A DNA stretch of 64,000 nt from an uncultured Gammaproteobacteria bacterium (GTDB lineage Bacteria; Patescibacteriota; Patescibacteriia; UBA9934; CAZDDW01), in NCBI GenBank assembly GCA_965231015.1, contig OZ246408.1, positions 857,908-921,907 of the forward strand. Direction: 5' to 3'. Positions 645 through 29,254 of the stretch are shown in pieces. The stretch's first letter is position 1; every line of letters begins with the position of its first letter. A program made the translations under genes and the position numbers. Under the pieces are notes generated by a model. It saw only the letters and a program-made list of their open reading frames with translations, did not search any database and was not told the origin of the DNA.

Positions 645-646
645 AA

Positions 647-1363: not shown

Positions 1364-2708
1364 TCTTCCCAGTCACCGCGTGCGAAATCAGCGACGAGCG
1401 GTATTCTTGAATTAACCTGATCGACTTTTGGATTTTTTTGATAGCTCTATCAATCTCCAATGTTTTCTTATCTAAAAAATATGCAATGTTTTTTTGAATA
1501 GACGTACTGGGTACAGGTATTGATTCCGTAAAATATGATTTGACATCTAGATTCTGAATACCAGTTGTCTGCTTTATGAACTTTTTATTGACTCCTTTAA
1601 CGTACATAGCTCTATTGAGATATGTAAAGTACTTTGAGTCGACAGAATCATTTAATCGTATAGTTTCAATGAAATTTGAATTTACTGCGGTGTTGTTCAA
1701 ATCAAACTGGACAATTCTGCCAACTGGTGTCTTTTCTCCACCTCCAGACTTCTCAAGTAATAGATCACCAAGCTGCAGTTTTTTTGAGCTAAGATGATTC
1801 CTCGCTACATCTCGGAAAGTGTAACCCTCAGGCTTTAATCTAAGATTTGTATAAACAAAGTCAGCAACTCGGACACATAATGTTCCAGTTTCTTCAGTCG
1901 CTTCACCATCACCCCATGTTCCACCAAAGTGAGTGCTAATGAAATCCTTTTGCCTTTGGACATCCCACCCCTCTGGCATCTCGCCAATCCATTCAACACC
2001 CGAATCTTTCATCTTCACATTCGGATCCAGGCCTTTTGTAACAGCTTGCGTAATCAAAGCCGCGCGTTTTTCTTTCAGAAGCTCGATCTGCTTCTTTTTC
2101 TTTTTCTCCACCTCATCAATCACGGCCGTTTTTTCATCAAGAAAATCTGCAATGCGTTTTTGTTGATCTGCTGATGGAAGCAGAACGCCGAGTCGTTCAA
2201 AATCATGTCGTTTTACTTGAAGTGAATTTGGTCGAACCCCATAAAGTAGGCTGGTATATTTTTGAACATACTCATATGAACGTAATAAATAGTGAGCGAA
2301 ACGACTCTCGATCTTATTACTTAAATAGTAACTCTGATAGGCCGGGCTAACGTATCCGTCAAGGGCTGAAACTCCTAGTCCTTTAAAGTTCAACCACATA
2401 GTATTAACGACAAGTTGACCCTTATGAACAATGCGATAGTTACTATTATCTTCTGAGACTAATTGACCGTCATTTGTTGTCACATTCCTGGGCTCAACTC
2501 CTCGATACCCTGATACAGATAACGCAAGCTCAAAATCAGGGTGATCTTTAACGCGTTCATCACTTGCCCACATGACAAATTTTAATGGTTTAAAAATCCA
2601 GTCATTTGGAATATGCACAATCCATTCAACACCTGAATTTTTCATCTCCTTTTTGTCTCGTAATGTGTATTTCATATTTATTGCCACAAATTTACAAACC
2701 AATTCCAA
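1350..2708 (-). CDS. hsdS: Type I restriction-modification specificity subunit HsdS (two target-recognition domains)
   Basis: Duplicated TRD lead-in motifs GVEWIVHIPNDW / GVEWIGEMPEGW, conserved central and C-terminal coiled-coil repeats (LDEKTAVIDEVEKKKKKQIELLKEKRAALITQAVTGKL / YFLDKKTLEIDRAIKKIQKSIRLIQEYRSSLISHAVTGKI); alternative internal starts at 2675/2645 possible. Confidence 0.85.
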   Translation of the reverse strand: MELVCKFVAINMKYTLRDKKEMKNSGVEWIVHIPNDWIFKPLKFVMWASDERVKDHPDFELALSVSGYRGVEPRNVTTNDGQLVSEDNSNYRIVHKGQLVVNTMWLNFKGLGVSALDGYVSPAYQSYYLSNKIESRFAHYLLRSYEYVQKYTSLLYGVRPNSLQVKRHDFERLGVLLPSADQQKRIADFLDEKTAVIDEVEKKKKKQIELLKEKRAALITQAVTKGLDPNVKMKDSGVEWIGEMPEGWDVQRQKDFISTHFGGTWGDGEATEETGTLCVRVADFVYTNLRLKPEGYTFRDVARNHLSSKKLQLGDLLLEKSGGGEKTPVGRIVQFDLNNTAVNSNFIETIRLNDSVDSKYFTYLNRAMYVKGVNKKFIKQTTGIQNLDVKSYFTESIPVPSTSIQKNIAYFLDKKTLEIDRAIKKIQKSIRLIQEYRSSLISHAVTGKIVVE

Positions 2709-3070
2709 TCAAGACCGAAAAACGCCAGTAAACCAATGAGCAGGGCCAGGATAGCTAGAGCTGCTTGGAAATCATTTTTAACCCAACGCCAAAGACGATA
2801 TTTAATTTTGAGCTCACTTCTACCTGCATTTGTTATTCCAACGTAAATCCCTGGAATTCCGCCACCGCTTCTACCGTTCTGTTTAATTATGAAATTTTGT
2901 GACTCCAATGTATCACAGGCATGAGCGACACGGGATTTGAAATAGTCAACATGTTTTCTTACATCTTCTTTATACCCTCTATCAAGCAAGGCTTTTTTTA
3001 GATTAGAAACAGTAATCTTCATATCATCTCGTACTAACACCTTTAGAATGTCCTTGTGTAATTTTTCCAT
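2678..3070 (-). CDS. small protein (130 aa): N-terminal winged-helix-like region, C-terminal TM helix; embedded between hsdM and hsdS
   Basis: ORF begins 2 nt after hsdM stop and overlaps hsdS start by ~31 nt; C-terminal hydrophobic stretch AALAILALLIGLLAFFGL; no family recognised. Confidence 0.45.
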   Translation of the reverse strand: MEKLHKDILKVLVRDDMKITVSNLKKALLDRGYKEDVRKHVDYFKSRVAHACDTLESQNFIIKQNGRSGGGIPGIYVGITNAGRSELKIKYRLWRWVKNDFQAALAILALLIGLLAFFGLDWNWFVNLWQ

Positions 3071-3072
3071 AC

Positions 3073-5112
3073 CTACATCTGATCAATCAATGACTTAAGT
3101 TCTGATTCGACCTGCTCGATATCTTTCTGAATTTCATCCAGTGATCGTGGGGCTTCATACTTGTAGAAGAATCGTGTTACCGGGATTTCGTAGCCAACTT
3201 TTCCGACTTTATTATCCTTGTGATCCTTTTTACTTTCATCAATCCATGCATCAGCAACATAAGGTTTTACTTCTTCTTCAAAATAGTCGTTAACATCTTG
3301 ATTCAGTGGAACATTTTCCGTATCGCGTAAACTCGAATCAGCTTGCTGCTTGTCTTGGCTATCCAAAAAGACATCCGCTGTTTCATCATGCTCGGAAAGA
3401 GCATTAACGATTGCCTTTTTAAGCGGAGCGGGTAATTTGAGATCGTTATTTTTCCATATACCCTCAAGCAATTTTATGTATTCATTTCCATTCTTAAATA
3501 ACTCAGTGGACATCTCGCTAAGTGCTGAAATGATGCTGTCTTGAAGCTTAATTCCGGCTTCAATTTCTTCATTGCCTTTATCGCCTTTTTTCTTCGAAGT
3601 AGCCAGCTTTTGAAAAACCTGCTCCTCTTTTAGCGCTTCAACACGTTCTGGAGTTACCTGAAAATTGAGCCTTAGTGGGCGTTCGATTGTAATCTGACGG
3701 TATCCAAAACCTTCGTTGTTGAAGATTTTTGAGTATTCATTCTCTTCAAACTTTGAATATAGCTCAACAATCTTTTTTCTGTCTTCTTCGGTGATTTCAT
3801 TGCGTTTGTTGCCAAGACTTTTGCGCATCTTTTCAGACATGCCTCGAGCGTCAATGATTTGCACCTTGCCTTTGCGCTCGTCAGGCTTTCGGTTTGTTAT
3901 AAACCAGAGATAGGTTGGAATACCTGTATTGAAGAAAAGTTGATCTGGCAAGGCAATGATAGTCTCTAGCCAATCGTTCTCTAGAATCCAGCGTCGGATT
4001 TCACTTTCTCCGCTACCCGCATCTCCAGTGAAGAGTGGTGACCCGTTGAAGACAATGCCCAGACGCGATCCGCCTTCGTGCTCGGGTCGCATTTTTGAAA
4101 TGAGGTGTTGTAGGAATAACAACTGACCATCAGAAACCCGCGGTGTACCAGCTCCAAAACGACCGGCGTATCCACGTTCTTCTTCACGCTCGATTACTTG
4201 CTTGTCTTTTTTCCAATCTATACCAAACGGAGGGTTGGTGAGCATGTAGTCAAAGTCTTTACTGAAAAACTGATCATTAGAGAGGGTGGAGGCGATGGAA
4301 TGATCCTTTTCTCCGCCTTTGATATTATTCGGATCTTCACCCTTAATCAGCATATCCGCCTTACACATGGCATAGGTAACCGGGTTCAATTCTTGACCGT
4401 AAAGATAAATGTCAGCGTTACTTTTGATATCTTTCTTAATATGATCTTTGGCAACCGAGAGCATTCCACCAGTACCACAGGCACAGTCGTAAATGGTTTT
4501 AATCAGATGTTCTTTTTGAAGTTTTTTTTGGTCAGGGGCGAAGAGGACTTCAACCATGACTTTAATAACATCTCGTGGAGTGTAATGTTCTCCCGCGGTT
4601 TCGTTAGATTGTTCGGCAAACTTTCGAATAAGCTCTTCGAAGATTGAACCCATCTCATGATTGTCCACTCGGTCCGGGTGAAGATCAACCTTGTTGATGA
4701 TTTTGATAATTTCGTAAAGCAGATTACCACCTTCTAGGCGATCTAGCTGGCGGTCAAAGTCAAACTTCTCAATGATGTCAGTGATGTTTTCGCTAAACTT
4801 GCTCAGATAATCACGAAAGTTTTGTGCAATACCCGATGGATCCTCAAGTAAATTATTAAAATCATATTCTGAGATATTATAAAATCCAACTCCACTGGTT
4901 GCTTTCAGGATTGGGTCAAGATCATTAATTTCTCCACTGAGCTCGTTGTATTGCTCAAGTACAGCCTTCTTGGTTGGTGCAAGCAACAAATCCAAACGTC
5001 GAATCACGACCAAAGGGAGAATTACATCTTGGTACTCGTGCTGCTTCCAGCCACCTCGAAGAATGTCAGCGATATTCCAAATTAATTGTGCTTTTTCTTT
5101 GAAGTTGTTCAT
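3073..5112 (-). CDS. hsdM: Type I R-M N6-adenine DNA methyltransferase subunit HsdM (679 aa, with C-terminal extension)
   Basis: SAM-binding motif I DCACGTGGML and catalytic motif IV NPPFG; HsdM-N-like N-terminus; followed by hsdS and hsdR. Confidence 0.9.
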   Translation of the reverse strand: MNNFKEKAQLIWNIADILRGGWKQHEYQDVILPLVVIRRLDLLLAPTKKAVLEQYNELSGEINDLDPILKATSGVGFYNISEYDFNNLLEDPSGIAQNFRDYLSKFSENITDIIEKFDFDRQLDRLEGGNLLYEIIKIINKVDLHPDRVDNHEMGSIFEELIRKFAEQSNETAGEHYTPRDVIKVMVEVLFAPDQKKLQKEHLIKTIYDCACGTGGMLSVAKDHIKKDIKSNADIYLYGQELNPVTYAMCKADMLIKGEDPNNIKGGEKDHSIASTLSNDQFFSKDFDYMLTNPPFGIDWKKDKQVIEREEERGYAGRFGAGTPRVSDGQLLFLQHLISKMRPEHEGGSRLGIVFNGSPLFTGDAGSGESEIRRWILENDWLETIIALPDQLFFNTGIPTYLWFITNRKPDERKGKVQIIDARGMSEKMRKSLGNKRNEITEEDRKKIVELYSKFEENEYSKIFNNEGFGYRQITIERPLRLNFQVTPERVEALKEEQVFQKLATSKKKGDKGNEEIEAGIKLQDSIISALSEMSTELFKNGNEYIKLLEGIWKNNDLKLPAPLKKAIVNALSEHDETADVFLDSQDKQQADSSLRDTENVPLNQDVNDYFEEEVKPYVADAWIDESKKDHKDNKVGKVGYEIPVTRFFYKYEAPRSLDEIQKDIEQVESELKSLIDQM

Positions 5113-5963
5113 ATAAGTGGTTTGAATAGTTGTGTGTACTCATGGAGATGAAAAACTCTATGTCTATCTTTTCCGGTCACCTCTTTGAGAACGTTAAGTT
5201 TTACAAGCTCCTTAAACAATTCATTGATCGTCTGGTAAGTACTTTTCTCTTGATAGCTATTCTGAAGTTCCTTGATGGTAAACTGCGGCTTTTCCATCAT
5301 ACATGGTAACAGACCCTGAAAAAGATCTTTGCGTTGTTTGGCAAAGCCATTCGTCCGCTCCTTATATTTTCCATCTAGTGTCCTGATGTTGTGAAGTAGA
5401 CTGATGATTAATTCTGTCTGTTCCGCAACTTGTTGATTTGGGTCATGGGTGTTGTTCTGCATCCGTGAAAATATAAGAATGGGGGCCAAGAGAACACTTC
5501 GTTCGACAAGATACATGTTGGCAATCAAATCTGCCACTAGTTCATTGCCTTTATGAAATGGCGATATTTGTAAAAAATTCTGATATAACTGGATAGCGCT
5601 TTCGAAAATATTATCTTTCGAGTTGTGCTTGACTAACAACCTTTGCAGTGCCTTCTGTTTATCTTGGGAACGCCATTCACCCGGCTGGTAATTATATGTC
5701 TCTTTTTGCGAAAAGATCTGACGATGCAGTGAAGCGATGGCGTCTAAAAAATCTTCTCTGACCTTCGTCGGTTTAATAAAGGCAGTGATAAACCGCGATT
5801 CAGTCACTGGTAGCTGACCATGATTCTCATCAATTATTTGCTGTGTAAAAGCTAATTTAGCCAAAGAATAGCGCATTAATAGCGCAAATTGCGATGATTC
5901 TATCCATCCATTGATCTTCCCGATGTTGAGAAGTGCTAATTTTTCTGGCGCAATATGTTGCAT
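5109..5963 (-). CDS. Fic/Doc-family-like protein with degenerate active-site motif and C-terminal wHTH-like domain; first gene of the R-M operon
   Basis: Segment ISPFHKGNELVADLIANMYL aligns to the Fic HPFx[DE]GNGRxxR motif but with H->S, D->K, G->E, R->L substitutions; stop overlaps hsdM start (5109-5112). Confidence 0.45.
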   Translation of the reverse strand: MQHIAPEKLALLNIGKINGWIESSQFALLMRYSLAKLAFTQQIIDENHGQLPVTESRFITAFIKPTKVREDFLDAIASLHRQIFSQKETYNYQPGEWRSQDKQKALQRLLVKHNSKDNIFESAIQLYQNFLQISPFHKGNELVADLIANMYLVERSVLLAPILIFSRMQNNTHDPNQQVAEQTELIISLLHNIRTLDGKYKERTNGFAKQRKDLFQGLLPCMMEKPQFTIKELQNSYQEKSTYQTINELFKELVKLNVLKEVTGKDRHRVFHLHEYTQLFKPLI

Positions 5964-5977
5964 ATCTTATTCAGAGT

Positions 5978-6006
5978 TTGACAAAGATTACTGATTGTGA
6001 TAATAC
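5978..6006 (+). promoter_or_regulatory. sigma70-like promoter for the divergent DUF2130-like gene (TTGACA-N17-TAATAC), sharing its -10 hexamer region with the minus-strand promoter
   Basis: TTGACA at 5978-5983, 17-nt spacer, TAATAC at 6001-6006; overlaps the minus-strand -10 at 6000-6005. Confidence 0.45.
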
Positions 6007-6029
6007 CAAAAGGCTAATTAATTGTCAAG
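6000..6029 (-). promoter_or_regulatory. sigma70-like promoter for the Fic-hsdM-hsdS-hsdR operon (TTGACA-N17-TATTAT on minus strand)
   Basis: rc of 6024-6029 = TTGACA, 17-nt spacer, rc of 6000-6005 = TATTAT; ~28 nt upstream of Fic-like ATG at 5963. Confidence 0.5.
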
Positions 6030-6045
6030 TAAATACTCAAATAAT

Positions 6046-7263
6046 ATGACCGAACAAACTATAATTTGCCCTGAGTGTAGCGCAGAAATCCCCTTAAATA
6101 AAGCGCTTACAGGAAAAATTCATGCTGAGCTTCGCAAGGAAATGAACGCAGAGCTTCAGGACAAGAGGACTGAGCTTGCCCAAAAAGAAACACAATTTGC
6201 TAAACAGCAGGAGGATTTGCAAAAAACAATTGATGCCCGTGTAGCAAAGGAGCGAGCGGAAATTGCCAAGCAAGCGAAAGATGAGGCTACAAAAGTGCTT
6301 GATCTTCAACTCAAGGATCTCCAAAAAGCCAATGAAGAAAAGGGACAGGAGTTGAAAGCTATGAAGGAGGCCGAGTTAGAGCTTCGTAGGCAAAAACGTG
6401 AAATTGAAGCGCGAGAAAAAAACCTCCAGCTCGAGTTTGAACGCAAAATGGATACTGAACGAGAAAAAATTGCTGAAGATGTGAGAAAAGCTGCTGCAGA
6501 AGAGAGTCGGCTTAAGGTTGCAGAAAAGGACAAACAGATTGCCCAAATGAACAAAACGATTGTGGATCTAAAACGAAAAGGTGAACAAGGCTCCATGCAA
6601 ATCCAAGGTGACGTGCAAGAAGATGGCCTGAAGATTCAGCTGCAGAATATTTTCCCTATTGATACCATCGAGGATGTCCCGACTGGAATTAAAGGAGCTG
6701 ACTTGGTGCATCGCATACGAACCGACCTTGGTCAAGAAGCTGGTACGATTCTCTGGGAATCAAAAAATACTAGGGCATGGAATGGTGGCTGGGTGAAAAA
6801 ACTCAAGGATGACCAGGCGTCTGTTAAGGCTGATGCATGTATCTTAGTTTCTCAAGCATTACCTGATGGGATCGATGATTTTGGATATGTCGACGGAGTA
6901 TGGGTGTGCAAATATCGCTCAGCTGCGTCTTTGGCGTCTGTGCTACGCCACAGCGTTGTTGAAATCTCACAAGTTAAGCAGTCGTTAGTGGGTAAGGATC
7001 AAAAAATGGAGCTTCTTTATAACTATTTATCCGGAAGCGAATTCCGAAACCGTGTAGAAAACATCGTTTCTGCATTCACAGGCATGCAGTCGGATCTTGA
7101 AACCGAAAAGCGTTCCATACAGCGCACATGGAAGAAGCGTGAAAAAGAAATTGAACGTGTAATCACTAATACGTCTGGGATGTATGGAGACCTTCAAGGT
7201 CTCATTGGTGCTTCGCTTAAAACAATCCGGTCTCTCGAACTATCAAGTGGGGATGAAGATTAA
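6046..7263 (+). CDS. coiled-coil protein with N-terminal CxxC and C-terminal PD-(D/E)xK-like domain (DUF2130-like)
   Basis: ORF track start is TTG at 6022; first ATG at 6046 (MTEQTIICPECSAEIPL); ~180-aa K/E/Q-rich coiled coil; C-terminal GADLVHRI...ILWESKNT resembles D...ExK nuclease motif. Confidence 0.5.
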   Translation: MTEQTIICPECSAEIPLNKALTGKIHAELRKEMNAELQDKRTELAQKETQFAKQQEDLQKTIDARVAKERAEIAKQAKDEATKVLDLQLKDLQKANEEKGQELKAMKEAELELRRQKREIEAREKNLQLEFERKMDTEREKIAEDVRKAAAEESRLKVAEKDKQIAQMNKTIVDLKRKGEQGSMQIQGDVQEDGLKIQLQNIFPIDTIEDVPTGIKGADLVHRIRTDLGQEAGTILWESKNTRAWNGGWVKKLKDDQASVKADACILVSQALPDGIDDFGYVDGVWVCKYRSAASLASVLRHSVVEISQVKQSLVGKDQKMELLYNYLSGSEFRNRVENIVSAFTGMQSDLETEKRSIQRTWKKREKEIERVITNTSGMYGDLQGLIGASLKTIRSLELSSGDED

Positions 7264-7358
7264 GGAAACCCGAGATGGTTTAGGTGAGAAAATTTTCCTA
7301 TTCGATAGAATAATAATATAACTGTTAGTATTGGGTGAATGTGCCATAATGCCCGCGT

Positions 7359-7862
7359 ATGATGGAGCAAGCTGAACAACTGGTGCGCGAGCGGATTACG
7401 GGCACGCGCAAAGGCATGGACAAGCCGGCCTGCACGCATTCGTTCAATGTGCGGGATATTCTGGCGAGGCACGGGTTTTCCGGTGAGGTGCAACTGGCCG
7501 GGCTGTTGCACGATGTGATCGAGGACGGGGGCGTGAGTTTGGACGAGCTAACAGCGCTCGGGTTTGGCGATCGGGTGGTAGAGCTCGTTAATCTGGCTTC
7601 GCACGACCTCGCGGTCGAAGGCTCGTACGAGCGCTGGGTCAAAATGATCGCGCGGCTGATTGACGCGACTGACGCCGAGGCTTGGGCCATCAAGCTCGCT
7701 GACATCCGCGACAACCTGCGCGACAGCCATGCTATGCCGAACAAAGAACAACAACTCTTGCTCCGCGAAGTCAAGGTCCGGCTAATGCTGGAGCTAACTA
7801 AAAATTTCAATGACCTGTCCGGTCTGCGCCAAGAACTGGCAAACGAGCTTAAGGCAATCTAG
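7359..7862 (+). CDS. small HD-domain hydrolase of RelA/SpoT type (small alarmone hydrolase-like)
   Basis: HSFNV...LAGLLHDVIEDGGVSLDELTALGFGDRVVELVNLASHD matches the SpoT/RelA HD hydrolase core (H...LLHDvIED...FG..V..LV). Confidence 0.55.
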   Translation: MMEQAEQLVRERITGTRKGMDKPACTHSFNVRDILARHGFSGEVQLAGLLHDVIEDGGVSLDELTALGFGDRVVELVNLASHDLAVEGSYERWVKMIARLIDATDAEAWAIKLADIRDNLRDSHAMPNKEQQLLLREVKVRLMLELTKNFNDLSGLRQELANELKAI

Positions 7863-7896
7863 TTTTTACTATTCGTTCGAATTAGAGCAAAAACAA

Positions 7897-7916
7897 AGAA
7901 GCCCCGAAAGGCTTCT
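7897..7916. terminator. 7-bp hairpin (AGAAGCC-CCGAAA-GGCTTCT) between convergent genes
   Basis: Perfect inverted repeat; no clear U-tract. Confidence 0.3.
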
Positions 7917-7936
7917 GAAGTGAGGATAAAGAGTGG

Positions 7937-8287
7937 TCAAGGATCAGTAGGACAAAGTGCGAGATTGCGATTCTGGAGCTCACCACTCTGTTCGGCTTTG
8001 AAGGTGGCAGTGTAGGTGCCGTCGGCATTGGGAGTAAGTTCGGTCAGGAAGTGGCGCTTGTAGGCCTCAGGGTGTCCGACCGCCAGCTCCTTGGTGAAGC
8101 GGGTGTTGTTCATGAACATGCGCACGTTTTCGATGCACTTCACATGTTCGGTGTCGATCACGCACTCGGCCCATTCGAGCCGGTTCTGGCTTTGGCAGTG
8201 CAGGACCGGAAGTCCGATCATGATGCCGATAATCAGTAGCCCGCCGACCAGGCTGACCCAGATATTTTCTTGCTCGCGCTTTTCCAT
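7937..8287 (-). CDS. small membrane-anchored protein (start taken at MEKREQ..., N-terminal TM helix)
   Basis: ORF in GC-rich island; hydrophobic IWVSLVGGLLIIGIMIGLPVL; longer ORF-track start at 8365 less likely. Confidence 0.4.
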   Translation of the reverse strand: MEKREQENIWVSLVGGLLIIGIMIGLPVLHCQSQNRLEWAECVIDTEHVKCIENVRMFMNNTRFTKELAVGHPEAYKRHFLTELTPNADGTYTATFKAEQSGELQNRNLALCPTDP

Positions 8288-8485
8288 GACTACTCCTTCG
8301 AAAGATCGTGCCTCAAACCTAGCAGAAAAATGAACACTGGTCAAGCCCATAAATTGACAAACCAAGCTTAAATGCTATAGTTATTTTTGAGAGGAGAAAA
8401 CAGCGCTTCGCGGTGCCTTACACATACTGATCGCAGTGGTCATATTACTTCATTTCCTTCAAAATCGACGACTGGTTGGACTAAC

Positions 8486-8773
8486 ATGAACAAGAACGCC
8501 TATTTTAGCAGCCTGATCCGCGAGCACGGCTTTAGCCGAGTGGCACACCAGATCGTGTACGAGCACGAGCGGCCGAGCAGTTCCCGCGCTGACTACTGGC
8601 GCCTTGAATTCACTGCTCAGACTGAGGACGATATGTACGTGCAAGGCCAGTTCACATCCGTGGGCTCGTCTGCCGGACAGCCAGCGCAAATCACCGGTCA
8701 GGTCACGAACCTACAGCCGATTTCAGCACAACAGTACCAACGGCTGGTGGCTGAATACGGCGGATTGGACTAG
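8486..8773 (+). CDS. hypothetical protein (start at MNKNAYF)
   Basis: ORF in GC-rich island, no family recognised. Confidence 0.3.
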   Translation: MNKNAYFSSLIREHGFSRVAHQIVYEHERPSSSRADYWRLEFTAQTEDDMYVQGQFTSVGSSAGQPAQITGQVTNLQPISAQQYQRLVAEYGGLD

Positions 8774-8781
8774 GGGGAAAG

Positions 8782-9231
8782 ATGAACCTGTGGCTCAAAC
8801 TGCAACACCTGTTCAGCCGGCGCTTCCAGGCGCGTTGCGGACACCGGACTTACCGGCGTGATCGCATCCAGGCCTATGGCTACAGCACCATCGTCACGCT
8901 CAGGACCGAGCACGAAACCACTCCCTACTGCCACCGCTGCCTGGAAGCCATGACCGCGCTGTGCCCGATCTGCCATTCGTCAATCTTCATTGGTGAACCG
9001 GTGCGGATCGTGGTGCCGCTGCGCGAAGACTTCGAAGTTCAGGAGGGCATGCGCACCTTTGACATTGATCAAAACCACATCAAAATGGTGGCCTGCCTGC
9101 GTTGCGCGGATACCATTGCGCTGATCAGCGGCATCTGGGTACCGCCAGGGGTGGTCCAGCTGATCGAATCCCCGCTCGAGCATGCTTGGCGCACTGGACA
9201 GCCCACAGTGGCCGAAATCTACTACCACTAA
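8782..9231 (+). CDS. Cys-rich hypothetical protein (CHRC...CPIC zinc-ribbon-like)
   Basis: ORF with CxxC x2 spaced ~12 aa; GC-rich island. Confidence 0.4.
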   Translation: MNLWLKLQHLFSRRFQARCGHRTYRRDRIQAYGYSTIVTLRTEHETTPYCHRCLEAMTALCPICHSSIFIGEPVRIVVPLREDFEVQEGMRTFDIDQNHIKMVACLRCADTIALISGIWVPPGVVQLIESPLEHAWRTGQPTVAEIYYH

Positions 9232-9314
9232 CTCCCGAGCCCTTCCTGAAGGGCTCGTTTCTTTTTGACAAATTAAAAGCGACCCGCATGATAACAGGTC
9301 GCGATTACGTTGTG

Positions 9315-9740
9315 TTAGCGACAAAGGTAGTAGTCTAAATCCCAGTCATCAACCGGGTTACCACAGGTGTCTTGTTCCATGACACACTCCCAGTCGTTAG
9401 TGAGCAACTTGGAACGGTGATGTCGGGGATGATCTTCGAAATAACTGATCTCTTCGTCAGTCAAATTAAGCCGATCGCGCAGTTTATCGCGCTCGAACAG
9501 AATCGGGTCCGTTGATGAACATTCTCGGAACATCGAACTGCACAAGATGCACTTGCACATCTGTTCGTGTTCGTAGTGTAAGTCTGCGAGCAGATGTATC
9601 ACCTTCTGGTCATGCTTGTCTGGATTCGGTCCGCGCTCATACCACAGAAATATTCCCACGAATGGATCGATCAAGATTAGCAAATACACCCCAATGATTA
9701 GACAAGAAATTATTAGATCTTTCCAATCTTGACGACGCAC
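9315..9740 (-). CDS. small membrane-anchored protein, tandem paralog A
   Basis: N-terminal TM helix; shares ERDKLRDRLNLTDEEISYFED / ...DLDYYLCR with adjacent ORF (QRDQLRDRLQFTDVEYEEFVQ / ...SLDYEYFAR). Confidence 0.5.
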   Translation of the reverse strand: MRRQDWKDLIISCLIIGVYLLILIDPFVGIFLWYERGPNPDKHDQKVIHLLADLHYEHEQMCKCILCSSMFRECSSTDPILFERDKLRDRLNLTDEEISYFEDHPRHHRSKLLTNDWECVMEQDTCGNPVDDWDLDYYLCR

Positions 9741-9742
9741 AA

Positions 9743-10186
9743 CTACCTCGCGAAGTACTCGTAGTCCAGGCTACCGTCGGCCTTAGTGAAAGCCGGGGGC
9801 TTATCCGGACAATGCCAGCTGGCAAGCACCAACTGCTCGCGTGTGGAGTCAGCACGTTGCACGAACTCTTCATACTCGACGTCCGTGAACTGGAGCCGGT
9901 CGCGCAGCTGATCGCGTTGGGTCAAGGATTCGGCCGAAGTCGGAAGGTCTTCGAGGTCAGTACCGTAGTATTCGCAAGTACAGGCCAGGTAGAAGTTGTT
10001 GTGTACCTCGGCCAGCTCGTCGAGCACAGCCTGGTTATCCTCAGACAGTGGTGGTTGAGTCAGGCCGTGGATCAGACCAATCACCCCGCAGATCACGAAG
10101 ATGACAAAGATCCCACCGATGACGTACATTTCTTTACGCATACTCTCTCCCGGAAAAAGTTCTGAATTCAGCATAGCAAAAATCAC
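9743..10186 (-). CDS. small membrane-anchored protein, tandem paralog B
   Basis: Same architecture and conserved blocks as 9315..9740; 2-nt spacing between the two genes. Confidence 0.5.
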   Translation of the reverse strand: MIFAMLNSELFPGESMRKEMYVIGGIFVIFVICGVIGLIHGLTQPPLSEDNQAVLDELAEVHNNFYLACTCEYYGTDLEDLPTSAESLTQRDQLRDRLQFTDVEYEEFVQRADSTREQLVLASWHCPDKPPAFTKADGSLDYEYFAR

Positions 10187-10270
10187 GACTTTGTCAAGGT
10201 TATTTCCTTGACATCTATCACTCCCAGTGCTATACTACCGCCCGCGTTCATATCAACACGGGGAGAAAAC

Positions 10271-10438
10271 ATGAACGACCCGACAAACGAGATTCAAGAC
10301 GTACCGGCGGACGAACGTGTGTTCGTCTGCGACTGGGTACCAGGCAGTGCTCTGCGCATCTGCTTCGTGCCGCTCGAGCCTGACTCGCCCGAGCCCACAT
10401 CTTCGAACCCGGATCAGCAGACGGATCCCGAACTCTGA
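10271..10438 (+). CDS. small acidic hypothetical protein (55 aa)
   Basis: ATG at 10271 preceded by GGGGAGAAAAC RBS-like sequence. Confidence 0.3.
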   Translation: MNDPTNEIQDVPADERVFVCDWVPGSALRICFVPLEPDSPEPTSSNPDQQTDPEL

Positions 10439-10645
10439 ACCCCAACGCAAAACCGAGCCCACGACGAGCTCGGCCCGCCCGAGGAGTATGTGAACTAGGC
10501 ACGAACAACACACACTCAATCACCAGCCGGACCCGTCTTCAAGGGCCCGGCGCGTTTTTTTCTTTGTTAGATTAAAAACGAAATCCCCAAGGTGAATTCC
10601 TTGGGGGGGTGAGTTAGTCATCACGTATATAGTGGAAGAAAAGAC

Positions 10646-10942
10646 ATGAGTGGATGTAGCTCTGAAGAAAAGCGCGCCCTTTCGAGCAGCCTGGGTCGCT
10701 TTTTCCTGGCTGTTCTGATCGGCTATGGCAGTTGGCTGGCGCTCGCCTATATCACCGTCTTCTGGATCAAGCCCCAGAACCATCTTCCGGACGTTGCCAA
10801 CTACATCATCGGAGCCCTTTTCATGATTGCCCTAGTCTTCTTCCCCCGTGTATCCCTTCGAATCTTCGGGATTACCAAGAAGATCCAACGCAATCCCTTC
10901 ACCACCGATGACTCCACAACCAAAAACCGAGCTAACGACTAG
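10646..10942 (+). CDS. small membrane protein (2 predicted TM helices)
   Basis: Hydrophobic segments FFLAVLIGYGSWLALAYITVFWI and IIGALFMIALVFFP. Confidence 0.4.
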   Translation: MSGCSSEEKRALSSSLGRFFLAVLIGYGSWLALAYITVFWIKPQNHLPDVANYIIGALFMIALVFFPRVSLRIFGITKKIQRNPFTTDDSTTKNRAND

Positions 10943-10990
10943 CTCGGTTCTATTCTGTAAATCCCGTGGATTGATTTATTACTGATTTTC

Positions 10991-12154
10991 TCAACTTTCA
11001 ACTGCTCCCAATACTTTTTCGATCACTGTATCGCTTGGATAACGCTTAAATAAAACTAGGGTTTCAGCATGATCCAAATTGAAATCTGGCTCATTTAAAA
11101 AAACTACCGAAGCCCGATTGTTCGAAAAATCAATCATGGCCACCTCGCCGCCGCTTTCTACATACTCTTTCAAAGACGTCATCATCTCTCCTTCGCTACC
11201 TCGGTATATCGGCCAAAAGTAAGCCACCCCATCCTTTTTTAACAACCGATCCATCTCCTCCCAATACACCTGAAACTCTTTACTTTTCATATTCGGAAAC
11301 ATGTGCGTGGACAACGACCAAGAAGCAACTAATCGATCAAATGATTCGTCTTCAAATGGTGTAGCCGGGAAAGCAGCTTTGACAAGATCAGCGTACTGAT
11401 ACTTTTTTAAGAACCGGTGCTCGGTGATCAGACGTCGGATTAAATCCTCTTGTTTTTCCTGACCAAACCCTTTATCGCGCAACGCCTCTTTCAAAACCGC
11501 CGGTTCAATTACCGTTTTGACCAAATGTGTGTCAGCAAAACTACGTTCCAGTTTAACTGCATCATACCAAAGTTCTCGCAAAGCATTACTTTCTTCAGCT
11601 TCTTCATCGACACGCCCTCTTAATTCAGCAATGGCATGACGTAAATCGCCCAAAATTGCCGTAGCCTCTGGATATTTTTCTAGATCTTGTGCGTCAGCAA
11701 TGTTGTGTATCTGTTCCAAGGTTTCTTCAATCTGATGAACCAGGTCTGGAAATGCATCTTCCAAATATTTTGCCTTACTCTCCATCTGTTGACCCTTCCA
11801 TTCTAAATTACTCTCCAAATGTTCCTCGGTATAAACAAACTCCGCTTCATCACCTGACTCATAATCTAAATTGGTCACCCCTTCCCGATCCAAAGTCTGC
11901 CATGGATCCCCAATATTCAAAACTTTTCCTGATTCTGGGAACAATTCTTTTACCGGAACTAAAGACTCATTCTCGTAATCTTGTTCTACTCGTCCGGTCA
12001 AAGCCTTTTCCTTGGCATCAACCGCCACAACCTTATCTGCAATTTCTTTTTTTATCTGTTCGAAGCGCTCACGCTCAGCTTCAAAAGTCTGATCTTGTTG
12101 ATCGAGTTCAGTATCATGTTTTGAACGAACCCGACCCATGCCTTCAATATACAT
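10991..12154 (-). CDS. hypothetical protein with methyltransferase-like C-terminal region
   Basis: C-terminal FDRLVASWSLSTHMF ... LLKKDGVAYFWPIY resembles class I SAM-MTase motifs II/III, but no clear GxGxG motif I. Confidence 0.45.
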   Translation of the reverse strand: MYIEGMGRVRSKHDTELDQQDQTFEAERERFEQIKKEIADKVVAVDAKEKALTGRVEQDYENESLVPVKELFPESGKVLNIGDPWQTLDREGVTNLDYESGDEAEFVYTEEHLESNLEWKGQQMESKAKYLEDAFPDLVHQIEETLEQIHNIADAQDLEKYPEATAILGDLRHAIAELRGRVDEEAEESNALRELWYDAVKLERSFADTHLVKTVIEPAVLKEALRDKGFGQEKQEDLIRRLITEHRFLKKYQYADLVKAAFPATPFEDESFDRLVASWSLSTHMFPNMKSKEFQVYWEEMDRLLKKDGVAYFWPIYRGSEGEMMTSLKEYVESGGEVAMIDFSNNRASVVFLNEPDFNLDHAETLVLFKRYPSDTVIEKVLGAVES

Positions 12155-12163
12155 ATGAACAAA

Positions 12164-12895
12164 TTATTTAGTATACCTCTCCACAAACCTTTTCAAAATC
12201 TCCATTGGGACTTCGATTTTTTCTTTGGACACTGTTTCGATTAACTGCTCGGCATCTTCTGGTGGGAAGTAGCCGGCGTGTTTGTAGATATTAATCCGCT
12301 CAACAATTCCAGGAACGTCGAGTTCCGGATGAAACTGGGCAGCGTAGACGTTTTGTTTGATTCGAAACATTTGTACCAGACAAGTGTTCGAGCTGGCAAG
12401 AAGAACGGCCCCAGCCGGCAAGGAATTACAACCTTCTTTGTGTCCTACAAAAGCCTGGAACTCGGTTGGTAGTCCAGCGAGTATTGGATCTTTGATTCCG
12501 TCTTCGTTAATTTTAATGGTTACTCCACCAACCTCTTCTCCTTCTTCTTTGGACACCTTACCTCCCCCGTGAGCTGTCAAAAATCCTACTCCAAGACAAA
12601 CTCCCAAAAATGGAAAGTCCTGTTCCACAACTTGATCAAGCAAGGCAAACAAATCTTTAATCACTCGCTTCTGATTAGCATCTCTTCCACTGTCTTTATC
12701 CGTCATATTGTACGGACCACCACCCAGAATTATTCCTGAATAATTTTCCAACTTAACATCTGGAATCCCAATCTTTTCCATCCGAACCCTCTGGACGTCA
12801 AATACTTCAAGACCTCCATACTTTAAAAATGCATCAAACTCTCCTTTTGAAGCTTCTTCTTCTGGCCGTGACTGTAAAATCAAAAATGGTTTCAT
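12164..12895 (-). CDS. class I glutamine amidotransferase-like protein (GATase1)
   Basis: Catalytic triad context GVCLGVGFL ... AAQFHPELD. Confidence 0.8.
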   Translation of the reverse strand: MKPFLILQSRPEEEASKGEFDAFLKYGGLEVFDVQRVRMEKIGIPDVKLENYSGIILGGGPYNMTDKDSGRDANQKRVIKDLFALLDQVVEQDFPFLGVCLGVGFLTAHGGGKVSKEEGEEVGGVTIKINEDGIKDPILAGLPTEFQAFVGHKEGCNSLPAGAVLLASSNTCLVQMFRIKQNVYAAQFHPELDVPGIVERINIYKHAGYFPPEDAEQLIETVSKEKIEVPMEILKRFVERYTK

Positions 12896-12913
12896 AGGTT
12901 ATCAATATTCTAT

Positions 12914-12935
12914 CCCACATTCGCACGAATTTGGG
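12914..12935. promoter_or_regulatory. 22-bp imperfect palindrome CCCACATTCGCACGAATTTGGG, candidate ArsR-family operator upstream of the GATase1 gene
   Basis: Identical copy at 13307-13328 upstream of the ArsR gene; half-sites CCCAcATTCG / CGAATtTGGG. Confidence 0.45.
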
Positions 12936-12946
12936 GTATAAAAGTT

Positions 12947-13207
12947 TTAAAGTAAATCAATTATAACACGACTCGAGATTGGTATTTCTTTATTTATTGA
13001 ATAAAAAATTTCACGACGAACCTGCTCGGTTTGCACTATTCCTACCTGACGTAAAATCGACAAGTGCCGGCTCGTTGATTTAAACGATAGTTTAATAATT
13101 TCAGATATTTCAGTAACCGTGGTCATGCCTTCCTGTTTCAAATATCTGAGAATTAATAACCGCCGCTCATTAGCCAATGCTTTTATTATTTTAGTCATGT
13201 TTTTCAT
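12947..13207 (-). CDS. ArsR/SmtB-family HTH transcriptional regulator
   Basis: LANERRLLILRYL...TVTEISEIIKLSFKSTSRHLSILRQVGIV matches ArsR HTH. Confidence 0.8.
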   Translation of the reverse strand: MKNMTKIIKALANERRLLILRYLKQEGMTTVTEISEIIKLSFKSTSRHLSILRQVGIVQTEQVRREIFYSINKEIPISSRVIIDLL

Positions 13208-13306
13208 AAATAAAAACTCACCTAAATTAATGGGGAGTCTTATCTATAAAACGAACTTACCATGTTTTTTATTACATGTCAATCGAGGTATGAAGACACT
13301 ATATCC

Positions 13307-13328
13307 CACATTCGCACGAATTTGGGAT
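13307..13328. promoter_or_regulatory. second copy of the 22-bp palindrome, candidate autoregulatory operator of the ArsR gene
   Basis: Exact repeat of 12914-12935 (with ~4 flanking identical nt). Confidence 0.45.
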
Positions 13329-13337
13329 ATATCAACT

Positions 13338-14114
13338 CTATTCCACTAGGCTAGCGATTCGTAGGCTCGTGGCAGGAATAGTGGGAAAGTGACAGACCAT
13401 CAATGATTCGACGAGATCATGGAATTCTAGAATGAGCTCACCCTTGATGGCGGGTTTGAGTAAATCATCCGGGGTTTCTTTGATACTGAAACGAAGAAGC
13501 TTCAGGGCTTCATCCGATATATCTCGGGCCGAGAACCAACGCTCTTCATCAGCTCGGCAACAATTATCACACACAATTCCACCTTTGAGGGCGTGCCAGC
13601 GAAAGGTGTTTGGCGTGACTGAGCGCCGACAAGAGATACAATGTCCGAGCTCAGGTCGATATCCGGAAAGATCGAGCAGTTTCAAGGCGAAACTTGCCAG
13701 CAGGTAACCGGAGCGCTCGGCCGAGACCTCGGGCATGGATCCGATGAACTCGAGCCAGCTAGTGAGTTCAGTGTAAAGGACAGGATCAGTTTCTTCAGCC
13801 CGGGTTCCGATATCGACTAGATGCAAGACTTGTCGAGCTAGTAACATCTTGTTCAAGTCCGAGCAAATGGGATGATAGGCCGCAAGTCGCTCTACTCCAG
13901 CCACAGTGTCGTAAACCCGACCTCGTACTACGAGCAGATCGAGCACAGCAAACGATTCCAAGTGCGGACCGAGCTTGGCTTGCATCTTGCGCGAACCGCG
14001 GGCCTGGAGCGATAGTTTGCCCCTGTCCTCAGTCAAAACAGAATAGACGCGATCCACTTCCCTGTGCTCGCGCCTCCCTAACACTATTCCTTTGGTTCGA
14101 AACAGAGTAGACAT
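13338..14114 (-). CDS. recO: DNA repair protein RecO
   Basis: N-terminal OB-fold region MSTLFRTKGIVLGRREHREVDRVYSVLTEDRGKLSL and C-terminal zinc motif CISCRR...CDNCC. Confidence 0.8.
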   Translation of the reverse strand: MSTLFRTKGIVLGRREHREVDRVYSVLTEDRGKLSLQARGSRKMQAKLGPHLESFAVLDLLVVRGRVYDTVAGVERLAAYHPICSDLNKMLLARQVLHLVDIGTRAEETDPVLYTELTSWLEFIGSMPEVSAERSGYLLASFALKLLDLSGYRPELGHCISCRRSVTPNTFRWHALKGGIVCDNCCRADEERWFSARDISDEALKLLRFSIKETPDDLLKPAIKGELILEFHDLVESLMVCHFPTIPATSLRIASLVE

Positions 14115-14511
14115 TTATTTTGTTTCATCAAACCAAGCCTGTAAAATAATCGCTGCTGCGATAGCATCTTCTTCAGCGGTAGCTCCGATTTCTTTTTGTG
14201 AACGGATTGCTTCAGCGGTGGTGTAACGCTCATCGATTTCCTGAACCGGGATCGAGACCTCGGCCTGAAGCTTTTTAACAAACTCGCGGGTTTTCTTGAG
14301 CTGCTCCGAGACACATCCTTCTACGGTCGACAACGGAGCTCCGACCACAACCTCATCAATCTGTTCTTCTCGGATTATCTCGACGATTCGTTGTACGGGC
14401 GAACGGCCGTTCGCCCGTACGCGTACAACCTCAAGCGGCACAGCCACTCTGGCCTCGTCCCCAAGCGCCAAACCAATCTTTTTATCTCCGTAATCAATTC
14501 CTAGATAGCGC
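14115..14511 (-). CDS. ruvX: YqgF/RuvX Holliday-junction-resolvase-like nuclease
   Basis: MRYLGIDYGDKKIGLALGD N-terminal signature; start taken at MRYLG. Confidence 0.85.
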
Positions 14512-14580
14512 ATACTGTCAAAGAAGCAACGAAGCAACGAAGCAAGCTTGTTTCTTTGTTTCGTTGTTTTATTGATTGAA

Positions 14581-15357
14581 TCATAATTCTGGCTGCGGGG
14601 TTAAAGTCTCAAACCCGTCAGCGGTCACCACAACCGTTACCTCAAAATGAGCTGAAAGGGAACCGTCCATTGTCGCACAAGTCCATCCATCATCAAGAGT
14701 TGTGATTTGATAATCTCCAGCAGTAATCATGGGCTCAATCGCCAAGCACATTCCTTCTACCATTTTAATTTTGGGCAAACTTGGATCAATAAAATTAGGA
14801 ATGCGCGGATCTTCGTGCACCGCGTGTCCAACCCCGTGCCCCACAAGCGAACGTACAATCCCAAAACCGGTTGGAGCCACAAACTTTTCAATGGCCGCAC
14901 CAATATCCCCAATTTCATTGCCGGGTTTTACTGCATCAAGCCCGGCGTGCAACGCATCCCGAGTTACTTCAATTAACTTTTCGGCTTCGTCCGTTATTTC
15001 ACCTACCGGCACGGTCACAGCCATATCAGTGTACATACCCTTATACTTACACCCAAGATCAAGCCCAATAATATCTCCATCTTTTAACTCAATGTCTCGC
15101 AAAGCCGGCCCGTGCACAATTTCATCATTGACCGAAGCACAAAGCGAAGACGGAAACGGATCCGTATCATGATGTCCGCTAAATTGTAAAAACGATGGTT
15201 CTCCACCGGCGATACGCATTGCTTTGGTAGCGGCTAAATCAAGCTCTGGCAGTTTGACACCGGGCTTGACCGCCCTGGCCGCGGCCTCAAGAGAACGCGA
15301 CAGAATCTCTCCACCTTCGCGCATAATAGTTATTTCTTCTGCTGATTTTCTTTTTGC
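14581..15357 (-). CDS. map: methionine aminopeptidase type I
   Basis: Metal-binding residues and motifs (DIIGLDLG, VGHGVGHAVHEDP, GMCLAIEPM). Confidence 0.9.
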   Translation of the reverse strand, partial: AKRKSAEEITIMREGGEILSRSLEAAARAVKPGVKLPELDLAATKAMRIAGGEPSFLQFSGHHDTDPFPSSLCASVNDEIVHGPALRDIELKDGDIIGLDLGCKYKGMYTDMAVTVPVGEITDEAEKLIEVTRDALHAGLDAVKPGNEIGDIGAAIEKFVAPTGFGIVRSLVGHGVGHAVHEDPRIPNFIDPSLPKIKMVEGMCLAIEPMITAGDYQITTLDDGWTCATMDGSLSAHFEVTVVVTADGFETLTPQPEL

Positions 15358-15361
15358 CATA

Positions 15362-15991
15362 TTATTCAATCGCGGCTTTTATTTTTTTATAAACATTTTC
15401 AATACTACCTGACCCATCAATTTTTTTTAGAATTCCCATTTCCTTAAATTTTTCAACAAGTGGCTCTGTATCTTCATGGTAAATTCGTAACCGTTCGCGA
15501 ATCGCCTCTGGCTTGTCGTCGCTCCTCTGAAGCAGAGACCCGCCACAATCATCACAAATATCTGCCACCTTGGGACGATTGTAATCAAGGTGATAAATTT
15601 TGCCACAACCTCCACAAATTTTGCGTCCAGACAGCCGACGCACAGATTCGGCTTCATCAAGCTCAATCAAGATGGCTAAATCAGGTTGATCAAAATCCAA
15701 GTATTGATTCAGTTGGTTTATATTACGCGGGTAACCATCAAGAATATACCCGTTAACTACATCGGCTTCCTTGATTCTATTGGCCACCATTTCACTTGTG
15801 ATGTAATCCGGTACTAGTTTACCATCTTTAATAAGAGCCTGCACTTTAATGCCAAGCTGAGTGCCGGATCCAATTTCAGCTCGAAATAAATCTCCGGTTG
15901 AAACCTGTGGAATACCAAGGTCTTCTGATAATTTTTGAGCCTGGGTTCCCTTTCCTACCCCCTGCGGCCCCATGAAAACAAATTTATTCAT
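15362..15991 (-). CDS. adk: adenylate kinase with zinc-binding lid
   Basis: P-loop GPQGVGKGTQ; lid CGGCG...CDDCG. Confidence 0.95.
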   Translation of the reverse strand: MNKFVFMGPQGVGKGTQAQKLSEDLGIPQVSTGDLFRAEIGSGTQLGIKVQALIKDGKLVPDYITSEMVANRIKEADVVNGYILDGYPRNINQLNQYLDFDQPDLAILIELDEAESVRRLSGRKICGGCGKIYHLDYNRPKVADICDDCGGSLLQRSDDKPEAIRERLRIYHEDTEPLVEKFKEMGILKKIDGSGSIENVYKKIKAAIE

Positions 15992-16058
15992 ATGAAGCTA
16001 GTTTATACTAAAAAACAAGGTCTTTCAACCTCGTTTTTATCATTTGACATTTATCATT

Positions 16059-17321: not shown

Positions 17322-17346
17322 AGCAAGTTAGCTTCGTTCTAGTAAT

Positions 17347-17796: not shown

Positions 17797-17802
17797 ATAA
17801 AT

Positions 17803-28891: not shown

Positions 28892-29254
28892 ATTAGGCTT
28901 ATCTTACCGATTTTTAGGGGATTGTCAAGGGAAGGCTTGGAAGGTCAGGAAGGCCCAGCCTTCTTGGCCTTCTCTCGCCCGTGGTTCCCTAACCGGACCC
29001 GCGGGTGTTTTTTGTTTCCGCTACTTCGAGCACGACGGAGGTTAATGGACATTTTTGACCGTTCCGGTCAGACGGGGTGACGAGGACTGTTTGAAGCCGA
29101 GCGTCCACCAAAACAAAAAAAGCGAGGCAAGTCCCGCAGTCAAGAGAAAAATGTTCATTTTCTACCTCCGGCGAGCACAGAAAGGCGGCCGGTTTCTTTT
29201 TTCCGGTTTTCTTTGCCGGTCCAAAGAAAACCGGGCTATTTTTCCAACTCGAAA

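Follow-up and report, generated by a model that had tools for sequence, protein, structure and literature searches.

A predicted small alarmone hydrolase and seven further small proteins in a probable GC-rich accessory islet of a CPR/Patescibacteria-like genome

Introduction

Phage morons, known from lambdoid phages, are autonomous promoter-gene-terminator units of deviant composition that are inserted between phage genes. In chromosomes of the Patescibacteria, genomic islands, including a type I restriction-modification (RM) island, have been reported to be common, and up to 13% of the genome length has been ascribed to horizontal gene transfer, mostly between Patescibacteria (PMC12455944). 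Small alarmone hydrolases, like Patescibacteria genomic islands, have already been described. Here we analyze a GC-rich segment at positions 7351 to 10950 of a 64,000-nucleotide (nt) stretch of contig OZ246408.1 (assembly GCA_965231015.1, positions 857,908 to 921,907 of the forward strand; hereafter the window). The segment, called the island below, holds eight small genes between a type I RM-Fic-DUF2130 cluster and a block of conserved core genes. It is probably a genuine accessory islet, made up of accreted self-contained cassettes that were drawn horizontally from an unsampled, GC-richer pool into a genome of ~1.0 Mb and ~45% GC of the Candidate Phyla Radiation (CPR)/Patescibacteria type.

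Results

Composition and borders of the island

A two-change-point likelihood fit over positions 5000-13000 placed the borders at 7351 and 10950, almost exactly where the initial annotation of the window had set them (7300-10950), and gave GC contents of 0.412 to the left, 0.536 inside, and 0.415 to the right. The interval as first annotated has 53.2% GC and the remaining window 45.4%; background windows of 3.65 kb had a GC content of 0.444 +/- 0.017 with a maximum of 0.470, which places the island at z = 5.2. In 1-kb windows, the GC content rose from ~0.40-0.44 to 0.50-0.56 across 7-11 kb. In 200-nt windows, it stepped from 0.43 (7201-7400) to 0.605-0.615 (7401-7700) at the left edge and came down to 0.385 (10901-11100) at the right edge, with peaks of 0.59-0.635 within genes and dips to 0.415-0.49 in the spacers and in the gene par141; the steps fall at gene ends. 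The jump from ~42% to 58-62% GC that had been described thus holds insofar as the island is real and its left flank has ~41% GC, whereas values of 58-62% occur only in gene interiors and the segment as a whole has 53.6%.

The coding DNA of the island has 55.3% GC and a GC content at third codon positions (GC3) of 0.685. GC3 is 0.67-0.75 in seven genes and 0.54 in par141, compared with a window median of 0.43 (median absolute deviation, 0.038; ~80 open reading frames) and with 0.38-0.41 in the genes flanking the island, so the G/C-ending codons pointed out earlier are plainly present. The high GC content also gives rise, as a by-product, to long open reading frames on the reverse strand (e.g., 7325-7810 and 9812-10165). 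The spacers have 44.7% GC in the island and 39.7% in the backbone, with single island spacers at 38-52%. The dinucleotide distance between island and backbone was 92, just above a null of 49 +/- 15 (maximum, 90). By GC z-score, GC3, and dinucleotide distance, the segment shows the compositional deviation of a genomic island.

Assembly support

The exact HD protein, encoded by the first island gene, was found on three contigs, including a 1,002,985-bp NCBI contig. A 40.7-kb Logan contig of run SRR7048225 matched window positions 1-17862 at 100% identity, and three contigs of run SRR7048221 tiled positions 1-7422, 7397-8598, and 8663-14131, also at 100% identity; the SRR7048221 assembly breaks inside the island, near 7422 and between 8598 and 8663. 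Both junctions are therefore present at 100% identity in the assemblies of two separate runs, and the assembly chimera that had been named as the alternative is rejected.

Position of the island between a defense cluster and a core block

To the left, the DUF2130 gene (Pfam DUF2130, 8.4e-68) is the last gene of the low-GC type I RM (hsdR/S/M)-Fic-DUF2130 cluster, as seen from the HsdR, HsdM, Methylase_S, and Fic calls on contig L001. To the right, a gene for a methyltransferase-like protein opens a conserved block that continues with GATase, RecO, RuvX, map, adk, secY, and ribosomal protein genes. A sister species, represented in runs SRR28370465 and SRR28370467, is 81-87% identical in nucleotide sequence across most of the ribosomal operon and 91% identical in the RecO protein. 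Its contig L093, with the order map-RuvX-(23S-IVP)-RecO-GATase-methyltransferase-like, aligned at 77-79% nucleotide identity with window positions 15364 to 10989, and the methyltransferase-like gene is the first gene in synteny (L093 3140-4300; 78.8% amino acid identity). The alignment stops two bases beyond the stop codon of that gene, at the right edge of the island; past 10989, the last 257 nt of L093 (37% GC) had no DNA or protein match to the window.

Two smaller differences were seen within the core block. A gene for an ArsR-type helix-turn-helix protein (window 12947-13207; 34% GC) lies between RecO and GATase and is absent in the sister species, where these genes abut, and a 23S-rRNA-IVP gene between RuvX and RecO (L093 1219-1593) is found in the sister species only.

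Genes, transcription units, and predicted expression signals

The eight genes have the strand order + - + + - - + +, which bears out the mixed orientation described at the outset (Table 1). The statement that most of their products carry an N-terminal transmembrane (TM) helix was too broad: by hydropathy, three of the eight do (TM1, par141, and par132), p98 has two TM segments, and HD, p95, p149, and p55 are soluble. TM1 was called as a gene in three assemblies. The genes would form about five transcription units, namely, HD; TM1; p95-p149, which is likely an operon; par132-par141, divergent from p55; and p98.

Most of these units would have their own sigma-70-type promoter, Shine-Dalgarno sequence, and hairpin terminator, the promoters and terminators being predictions from consensus matches. 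A sigma-70-like promoter scan gave 9 sites in 3.85 kb, compared with 2.5 +/- 1.5 expected, and the three best, all with an extended -10 TG, lie before p95, par132, and p55. Five of the 18 strong promoter matches of the window are in the island, which makes up 6% of its length. The backbone holds equally good matches, e.g., before the Fic-hsdM operon and the tRNAs, which indicates that the island carries signals of native type. TM1, p149, par141, par132, and p55 each have a good Shine-Dalgarno sequence in front of them, and hairpin terminators are predicted behind TM1, p149, par141, and p98. With such signals of their own, the units would be expressible independently of their neighbors. An Rfam scan of the island (E-value mode) found no RNA element.

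Some features of these regions were of interest in their own right. A 34-nt repeat (82% identity) occurs at 10440-10473, just after p55, and at 10914-10947, overlapping the last codons of p98; both copies hold the hairpin CCGAGC-N8-GCTCGG and could be a shared terminator module or the relic of a cassette duplication. Directly after the promoter-like site upstream of p95 comes GAGAGGAG (8389-8396), which resembles a Shine-Dalgarno sequence but is not followed by a usable start codon, and the called start of p95 is ~98 nt farther downstream, without a clear ribosome-binding site. The structure predicted for this 98-nt leader was not unusual (z = +0.97).

Table 1. Features of the GC-rich segment and its immediate flanks (window coordinates; expression signals are predictions)
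Feature	Position	Strand	GC3	Description
GC-rich segment	7351..10950	none		Two-change-point likelihood fit, background z, fine GC profile
HD	7359..7862	+	0.71	167 aa; GC 57.7%; HD_4 hydrolase; Pfam HD_4, spoT_relA
TM1	7937..8287	-	0.71	116 aa; N-terminal hydrophobic anchor, residues 6-33; 4 Cys; ribosome-binding site GAAGGAG
p95	8486..8773	+	0.70	95 aa; soluble; gene call on L001
p149	8782..9231	+	0.75	149 aa; three CxxC pairs; 8 nt after p95
par141	9315..9740	-	0.54	141 aa; membrane anchored; 8 Cys; start 2 nt after par132 (operon)
par132	9743..10141	-	0.71	132 aa; membrane anchored; helical C-terminal domain
p55	10271..10438	+	0.70	55 aa; acidic; soluble
p98	10646..10942	+	0.67	98 aa; two TM segments; gene call in SRR7048221 assembly
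Terminator after TM1	7897..7916	-		Between convergent HD and TM1; hairpin plus T-run, terminator scan
Promoter-like site before p95-p149	8354..8381	+		TTGACA-16-TATAGT, TG; 11/12 matches
Intrinsic terminator after p149	9236..9257	+		9-bp stem plus T-run
Intrinsic terminator after par141	9279..9302	-		GCGACC...GGGTCGC plus T-run; same hairpin type after L012 genes
Divergent back-to-back promoter-like sites	10170..10236	- and +		par132, 10197-10170 (-), 10/12 matches; p55, 10208-10236 (+), 11/12 matches; both TG
Structured region 3' of p55	10452..10566	+		Hairpin CCGAGC-N8-GCTCGG, then hairpin 10526-10551 plus T7; fold z = -2.07
Hairpin at p98 end	10925..10949	+		Between convergent p98 and methyltransferase-like gene; terminator scan; marks right edge
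DUF2130 gene, left flank	6022..7263	+	0.39	Pfam DUF2130
Methyltransferase-like core gene, right flank	10991..12154	-	0.38	387 aa; Methyltransf_11, 7.1e-06

HD, a predicted stand-alone alarmone hydrolase

The initial annotation had spoken of a SpoT-like HD hydrolase, and the profile searches agreed. HD matched Pfam HD_4 (PF13328) at residues 7-138 with 47.1 bits (cutoff, 27.2; E = 2.7e-12) and the N-terminal hydrolase region of TIGR00691 (spoT_relA) at 2.5e-11, and its best relatives in the PDB were Listeria Lmo0812 (4yf1, 6.9e-11), the hydrolase domains of Rel/RelA proteins, and Mesh1. The residues H27, H51, D52, E55, D56, K112, D115, and N119 are invariant in a family alignment of 34 sequences including HD, and in the PDB alignments, the catalytic and metal-site residues also align with those of Lmo0812 and RelA. 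At 167 amino acids, the protein has no domain other than the HD-type one. By sequence, HD is a stand-alone small alarmone hydrolase of the RelA/SpoT type with intact catalytic residues, and it most likely hydrolyzes alarmones of the (p)ppGpp or (p)ppApp type in a metal-dependent manner. A module of a toxic small alarmone synthetase (toxSAS) with a small alarmone hydrolase antitoxin was considered and rejected, as the eight island proteins and two flanking proteins gave no hit to RelA_SpoT (PF04607).

A family search returned 54 relatives with at most 59% identity. Four of them carry names; two of these are from Candidatus Uhrbacteria, the other labels give function only, none is actinobacterial, and the remaining 50 are nameless. 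The homolog of Uhrbacteria GW2011_GWE2_45_35 (L009) lies among housekeeping genes and has a native GC3 of 0.43. The closest subclade consists of the homologs on contigs L013, L016, and L003, with 65%, 59%, and 56% identity to HD, respectively, and 88% identity between L013 and L016. The whole subclade, including the window copy, has 58-61% GC, and its contexts have 37-49%. The L013 homolog, a lone GC-rich gene, is flanked by an AbiEii pair on one side and hsdM-AAA_21-hsdS-hsdR on the other, and that of L003 has a NERD gene on one side and an N6_N4 methyltransferase gene with AAA_15 on the other; the neighbors were readable in two of the three other contigs, and RM or Abi genes were present in both. 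As the window copy follows hsdR/S/M-Fic-DUF2130, three of the four low-GC contexts place the gene in or beside clustered RM, NERD, or Abi genes. This evolutionary association suggests that HD belongs with the adjacent defense cluster.

The relatives of HD lie in CPR-type contigs, and two distant loci can be read only with genetic code 25, which indicates that the family spans several CPR lineages. These are L021 8001-8477 (36% GC), open only if TGA is a sense codon as in Gracilibacteria/Absconditabacteria-like organisms, and L096 6001-6717 (26% GC), an IMG/VR contig on which the locus adjoins a McrB-like sequence. An extra N-terminal extension of ~90 amino acids with a double CxxC (zinc-ribbon-like), absent from the window HD, was seen in several close HD relatives, namely, L013 (1542-2276), P0002, P0009, and P0012; the L013 copy seems truncated at its C terminus. 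The HD family also has phage members, with a match to phrog_990 at 4.5e-17 and distant tblastn matches in jumbo and Listeria phages.

Tandem paralogs and a p55/par132 pair found elsewhere

The tandem paralogs noted in the initial annotation are par141 and par132, which align with 26% identity over 106 amino acids in BLASTP (E = 3e-12) and are true but old paralogs. Among 5.8 billion proteins, par141, par132, and p149 had only self-matches, and a first scan of metagenomes for the par132 family was negative. One real homolog of par132, P0077 (E = 1.4e-16; 41% identity), emerged when 1.84 billion representatives were searched in full with HMMER. A second candidate, P0078 (2085 amino acids), was spurious, being a eukaryote-like coiled-coil repeat matched by the profile.

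P0077 is encoded on L012, a 2.6-kb metagenomic contig unrelated to the window, on which tblastn detected a homolog of p55 as well (62% identity over 37 amino acids; E ~2e-10). The p55 homolog and P0077 are divergent, in the same arrangement as p55 and par132 in the window. The promoter of P0077 (TTGACAAAGCCGCGGTTTTTGCTATGG) is almost the same as that of par132 (TTGACAAAGTCGTGATTTTTGCTATGC), and the p55 promoter with the 5' region matched L012 with 70% DNA identity over window positions 10190-10383; the proteins of this pair have diverged more than its promoters. GC3 is 0.60-0.72 for the pair in both copies and ~0.71 each for par132 and P0077. The HD gene recurs on other contigs than the p55/par132 pair does, so the island is not one block and is composite.

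Six of the eight island proteins had no detected relative. For three of these six, namely, TM1, p95, and p98, the searches were limited to profile libraries, an exact-sequence cluster look-up, and phage and plasmid tblastn. The small proteins gave nothing above threshold in Pfam, NCBIfam, PADLOC, or PHROGs; the zinc-ribbon matches of p149 in Pfam were all subthreshold. An AlphaFold model of par132 was helical, with a predicted local distance difference test (pLDDT) score of 75, and found no fold match in the PDB (best E > 8), and a single-sequence model of p149 was unusable (pLDDT, 33). From their hydrophobic segments, TM1, par141, and par132 are most likely N-terminally anchored, Cys-containing proteins on the outer face of the membrane, and they probably evolve fast.

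Searches for a donor and for mobility functions

In a concatenated tblastn search, the seven non-HD proteins had no match in 50,697 phage or 72,556 plasmid records. Scans of IMG/VR with HD, p149, and par132, and with an alignment of the par132 family, found nothing, and a scan with the HD family alignment found only distant or native-GC matches; the single family-level match for HD was on the 26%-GC, code-25 contig mentioned above, where the gene has native GC content. The speculation that an actinobacterial host of high GC, or a phage of that host, had supplied the DNA found no support in its phage part, as the seven proteins were without a match, the IMG/VR scans gave no close relative, and no GC-rich phage donor turned up. 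The actinobacterial part found no support either, with no Actinobacteria-named relative of any island protein among the few source-named matches.

The nearest tRNA gene is 45 kb from the island, and flanking repeats did not exceed chance. An integron cassette array was rejected on the grounds of the mixed orientation, terminator hairpins that are short and are not attC sites, and the lack of IntI in the flanks. A target of a diversity-generating retroelement was likewise rejected, since its repeats and reverse transcriptase were not seen.

Other features of the window

Two further GC-rich blocks were observed, and there was no paralogy among the three. The second and stronger block (28950-32050; up to 66% GC; GC3, 0.81-0.85) lies in the str operon between Phd/tuf and fusA. 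It encodes a 442-amino-acid protein that combines a coiled coil with a C-terminal TM segment and a tail rich in Cys, and a 376-amino-acid protein with an N-terminal TM anchor; these had no Pfam match and only subthreshold NCBIfam matches and are not paralogous to the island proteins. The third block (38749-41547), downstream of an M20 peptidase gene, encodes proteins of 480 and 439 amino acids (GC3, 0.56-0.60), neither of which matched Pfam or NCBIfam, and the 480-amino-acid protein also had no PDB match. The tRNA-Arg(TCT) gene at 56133-56220 (88 nt) gave an Rfam match at 56132-56232, longer than a standard tRNA, and may carry an insertion or intron. At 17347-18522, the uL15 gene directly follows that of uS5, with no uL30 gene between them, which is consistent with a CPR affiliation but is not proof of it. 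That affiliation is inferred from the missing uL30 gene together with the size of the 1.0-Mb contig, the HD relatives named Uhrbacteria, and the HD relatives read with code 25.

Discussion

The deviant composition, the synteny break at the right edge, and the number of proteins without relatives suggest that the islet probably occupies a variable site between the type I RM-Fic-DUF2130 cluster and the core block and that its cassettes would have come in horizontally from an accessory pool that is GC-richer and unsampled. HD would travel with RM/Abi clusters, and the islet genes may have a defense or cell-surface role. The earlier claim of horizontal acquisition is supported by the foreign-looking composition, the break in synteny, and the mostly relative-less proteins; its further elements, a single block and a named donor, are not.

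Several observations weigh against such a transfer. Scans with Pfam, NCBIfam, and PHROG profiles and for repeats showed no integrase, transposase, adjoining tRNA, or flanking direct repeats, and the searches yielded no donor lineage. The sister species is visible for 257 nt beyond the right border, and the comparison covers the right border only. The tetranucleotide z-scores of the island correlated with those of the backbone at 0.50 (null, 0.59 +/- 0.08), ~1 standard deviation below expectation, and both spacers and promoters are native in type; the check by sliding-window GC and tetranucleotide profiles that had been called for thus had a divided outcome, with a strongly deviant GC content and an only moderately deviant oligonucleotide signature. 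The GC3 of RecO (window 13338-14114), which is a core gene in synteny, is raised in the window (0.53) as well as in the sister species (0.58-0.61), so high GC3 alone is no proof of recent import in this lineage, and the gene-specific GC heterogeneity of the lineage extends beyond imported genes. In addition, par132 and P0077 both keep a GC3 of ~0.71 at 41% identity, and the HD subclade stays at 58-61% GC across 56-88% identity; constant high GC in diverged homologs does not easily fit a simple recent import followed by amelioration.

These observations feed the main rival explanation, by which the genes are native and vertically inherited and their GC-rich third positions are kept by a gene-specific process, such as GC-biased gene conversion in a variable region prone to recombination or selection on composition. 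The raised GC3 of RecO in both species, the high GC3 kept in lower-GC contexts by orthologs at 41% identity (par132/P0077) or 56-88% identity (HD subclade), the tetranucleotide signature near that of the backbone, and the native-type promoters, including a par132 promoter conserved in L012, all speak for it. We nevertheless consider it unlikely, given that the sister species is without island sequence beside the methyltransferase-like gene, that six of eight proteins have no detected relative, that the GC3 shift of the island (~+0.27) is far above that of RecO (~+0.10), and that distant HD homologs are found at host GC content, such as the Uhrbacteria homolog. Quite improbable is a decayed prophage or mobile element that lost its mobility genes and left the small genes behind as morons or as membrane proteins of the superinfection-exclusion type. 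The units are moron-like in their predicted promoters and terminators and in a composition unlike that of the flanks, the HD family has phage members (phrog_990 and the jumbo and Listeria phage matches), and small membrane proteins are typical of such regions, but genes for an integrase, structural proteins, or replication are lacking, as are att-like repeats and a tRNA next to the island. Moreover, the seven non-HD proteins were without a phage or plasmid match, the IMG/VR scans gave no close relative of HD, p149, or the par132 family, and the sole family-level match of HD there is the native-GC gene on the 26%-GC, code-25 contig.

A recent transfer of one block into an episymbiont, with an actinobacterial host of high GC or a phage of that host as the source, accounts for the direction of the GC shift, and transfer from host to symbiont is plausible in CPR biology; nothing else favors this explanation, which we regard as highly improbable. 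The taxon-named relatives of HD are the two Candidatus Uhrbacteria sequences, no actinobacterial relative of the island proteins was found among the source-named matches, and the sole actinomycetotal match was an unrelated one to RecO at 29%, which was all that a scan of the GTDB representatives with a RecO alignment returned; the lineage of the window is absent from that set. The spacers, at 38-52% GC with native-type promoters, the separate distribution of the HD gene and the p55/par132 pair, and the GC3 of par141 (0.54), far below that of its neighbors, also argue against one such block. That pieces of a high-GC genome were joined to a low-GC one in an assembly chimera is hardly credible. 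The compositional jump itself and the fragmentation of the second run's assembly in the island would be in keeping with one, but the junctions are 100% identical in the SRR7048225 contig, the SRR7048221 contigs, and the 1.0-Mb NCBI contig, the compositional steps coincide with gene ends, the island promoters and terminators are of the same type as in the rest of the window, and contigs from other samples also show a GC-rich HD gene in a low-GC context.

If the preferred explanation, an accessory islet of horizontally gained cassettes, is true, then the locus is a clean, assembly-verified case of a reduced 1-Mb genome gaining small surface and defense-associated genes, with single promoter-gene-terminator units that would be added one after another at the margin of an RM cluster. 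A broader proposal, which we put forward with low confidence, is that a distinct GC-rich accessory pool moves between low-GC genomes of the CPR type in the form of tiny cassettes that drive their own expression, with the HD subclade (58-61% GC) repeatedly placed beside RM/Abi genes. Were this so, there would be a continuing flux from an unsampled GC-rich reservoir, be it a host or a mobile element, that could be used as a tracer of host identity; alternatively, some process would hold the GC content of cassette genes high. The hydrolase would then be a functional accessory of defense islands, for example, by neutralizing toxins or signals of the alarmone type. What goes beyond the routine is the GC-rich, defense-linked subclade of alarmone hydrolases, a testable lead that bears on the role of stand-alone SpoT-like hydrolases in organisms possibly without a stringent response and on the source of CPR accessory genes.

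The closest described systems each share part of this picture. The island units resemble phage morons in their promoter-like sites and hairpin terminators, as predicted from consensus, in the change of composition at unit borders, and in their small products of membrane type or unknown function; unlike morons, they lie in a chromosome with no prophage or phage genes recognizable in or around the island by Pfam and PHROG scans. With integron cassette arrays, the island shares a run of short genes of unknown function, of mixed composition, and without detected relatives, whereas it differs in its mixed orientation, a predicted promoter of its own for each gene, and the absence of attC sites and of an adjacent integrase. 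HD is like the small alarmone hydrolases Lmo0812 and Mesh1/HDDC3 in its single HD_4 domain and its preserved H..HD..ED..K..D..N residues. It differs from them in that no alarmone synthetase gene (RelA_SpoT) adjoins it, in that its nearest relatives adjoin RM/Abi genes rather than toxSAS toxins, and in an identity of at most 38% to any characterized or phage homolog. As in the genomic islands of Patescibacteria/CPR genomes (PMC12455944), deviant accessory DNA of mostly hypothetical gene content lies next to type I RM genes in a genome of very small size, and homology to the sister species ends at its right edge. In contrast to those islands, the present one has no mobility genes and no identifiable donor; it is pieced together from very small units whose predicted promoters are of native style, and it is GC-richer than its genome and next to an RM block that is slightly GC-poorer.

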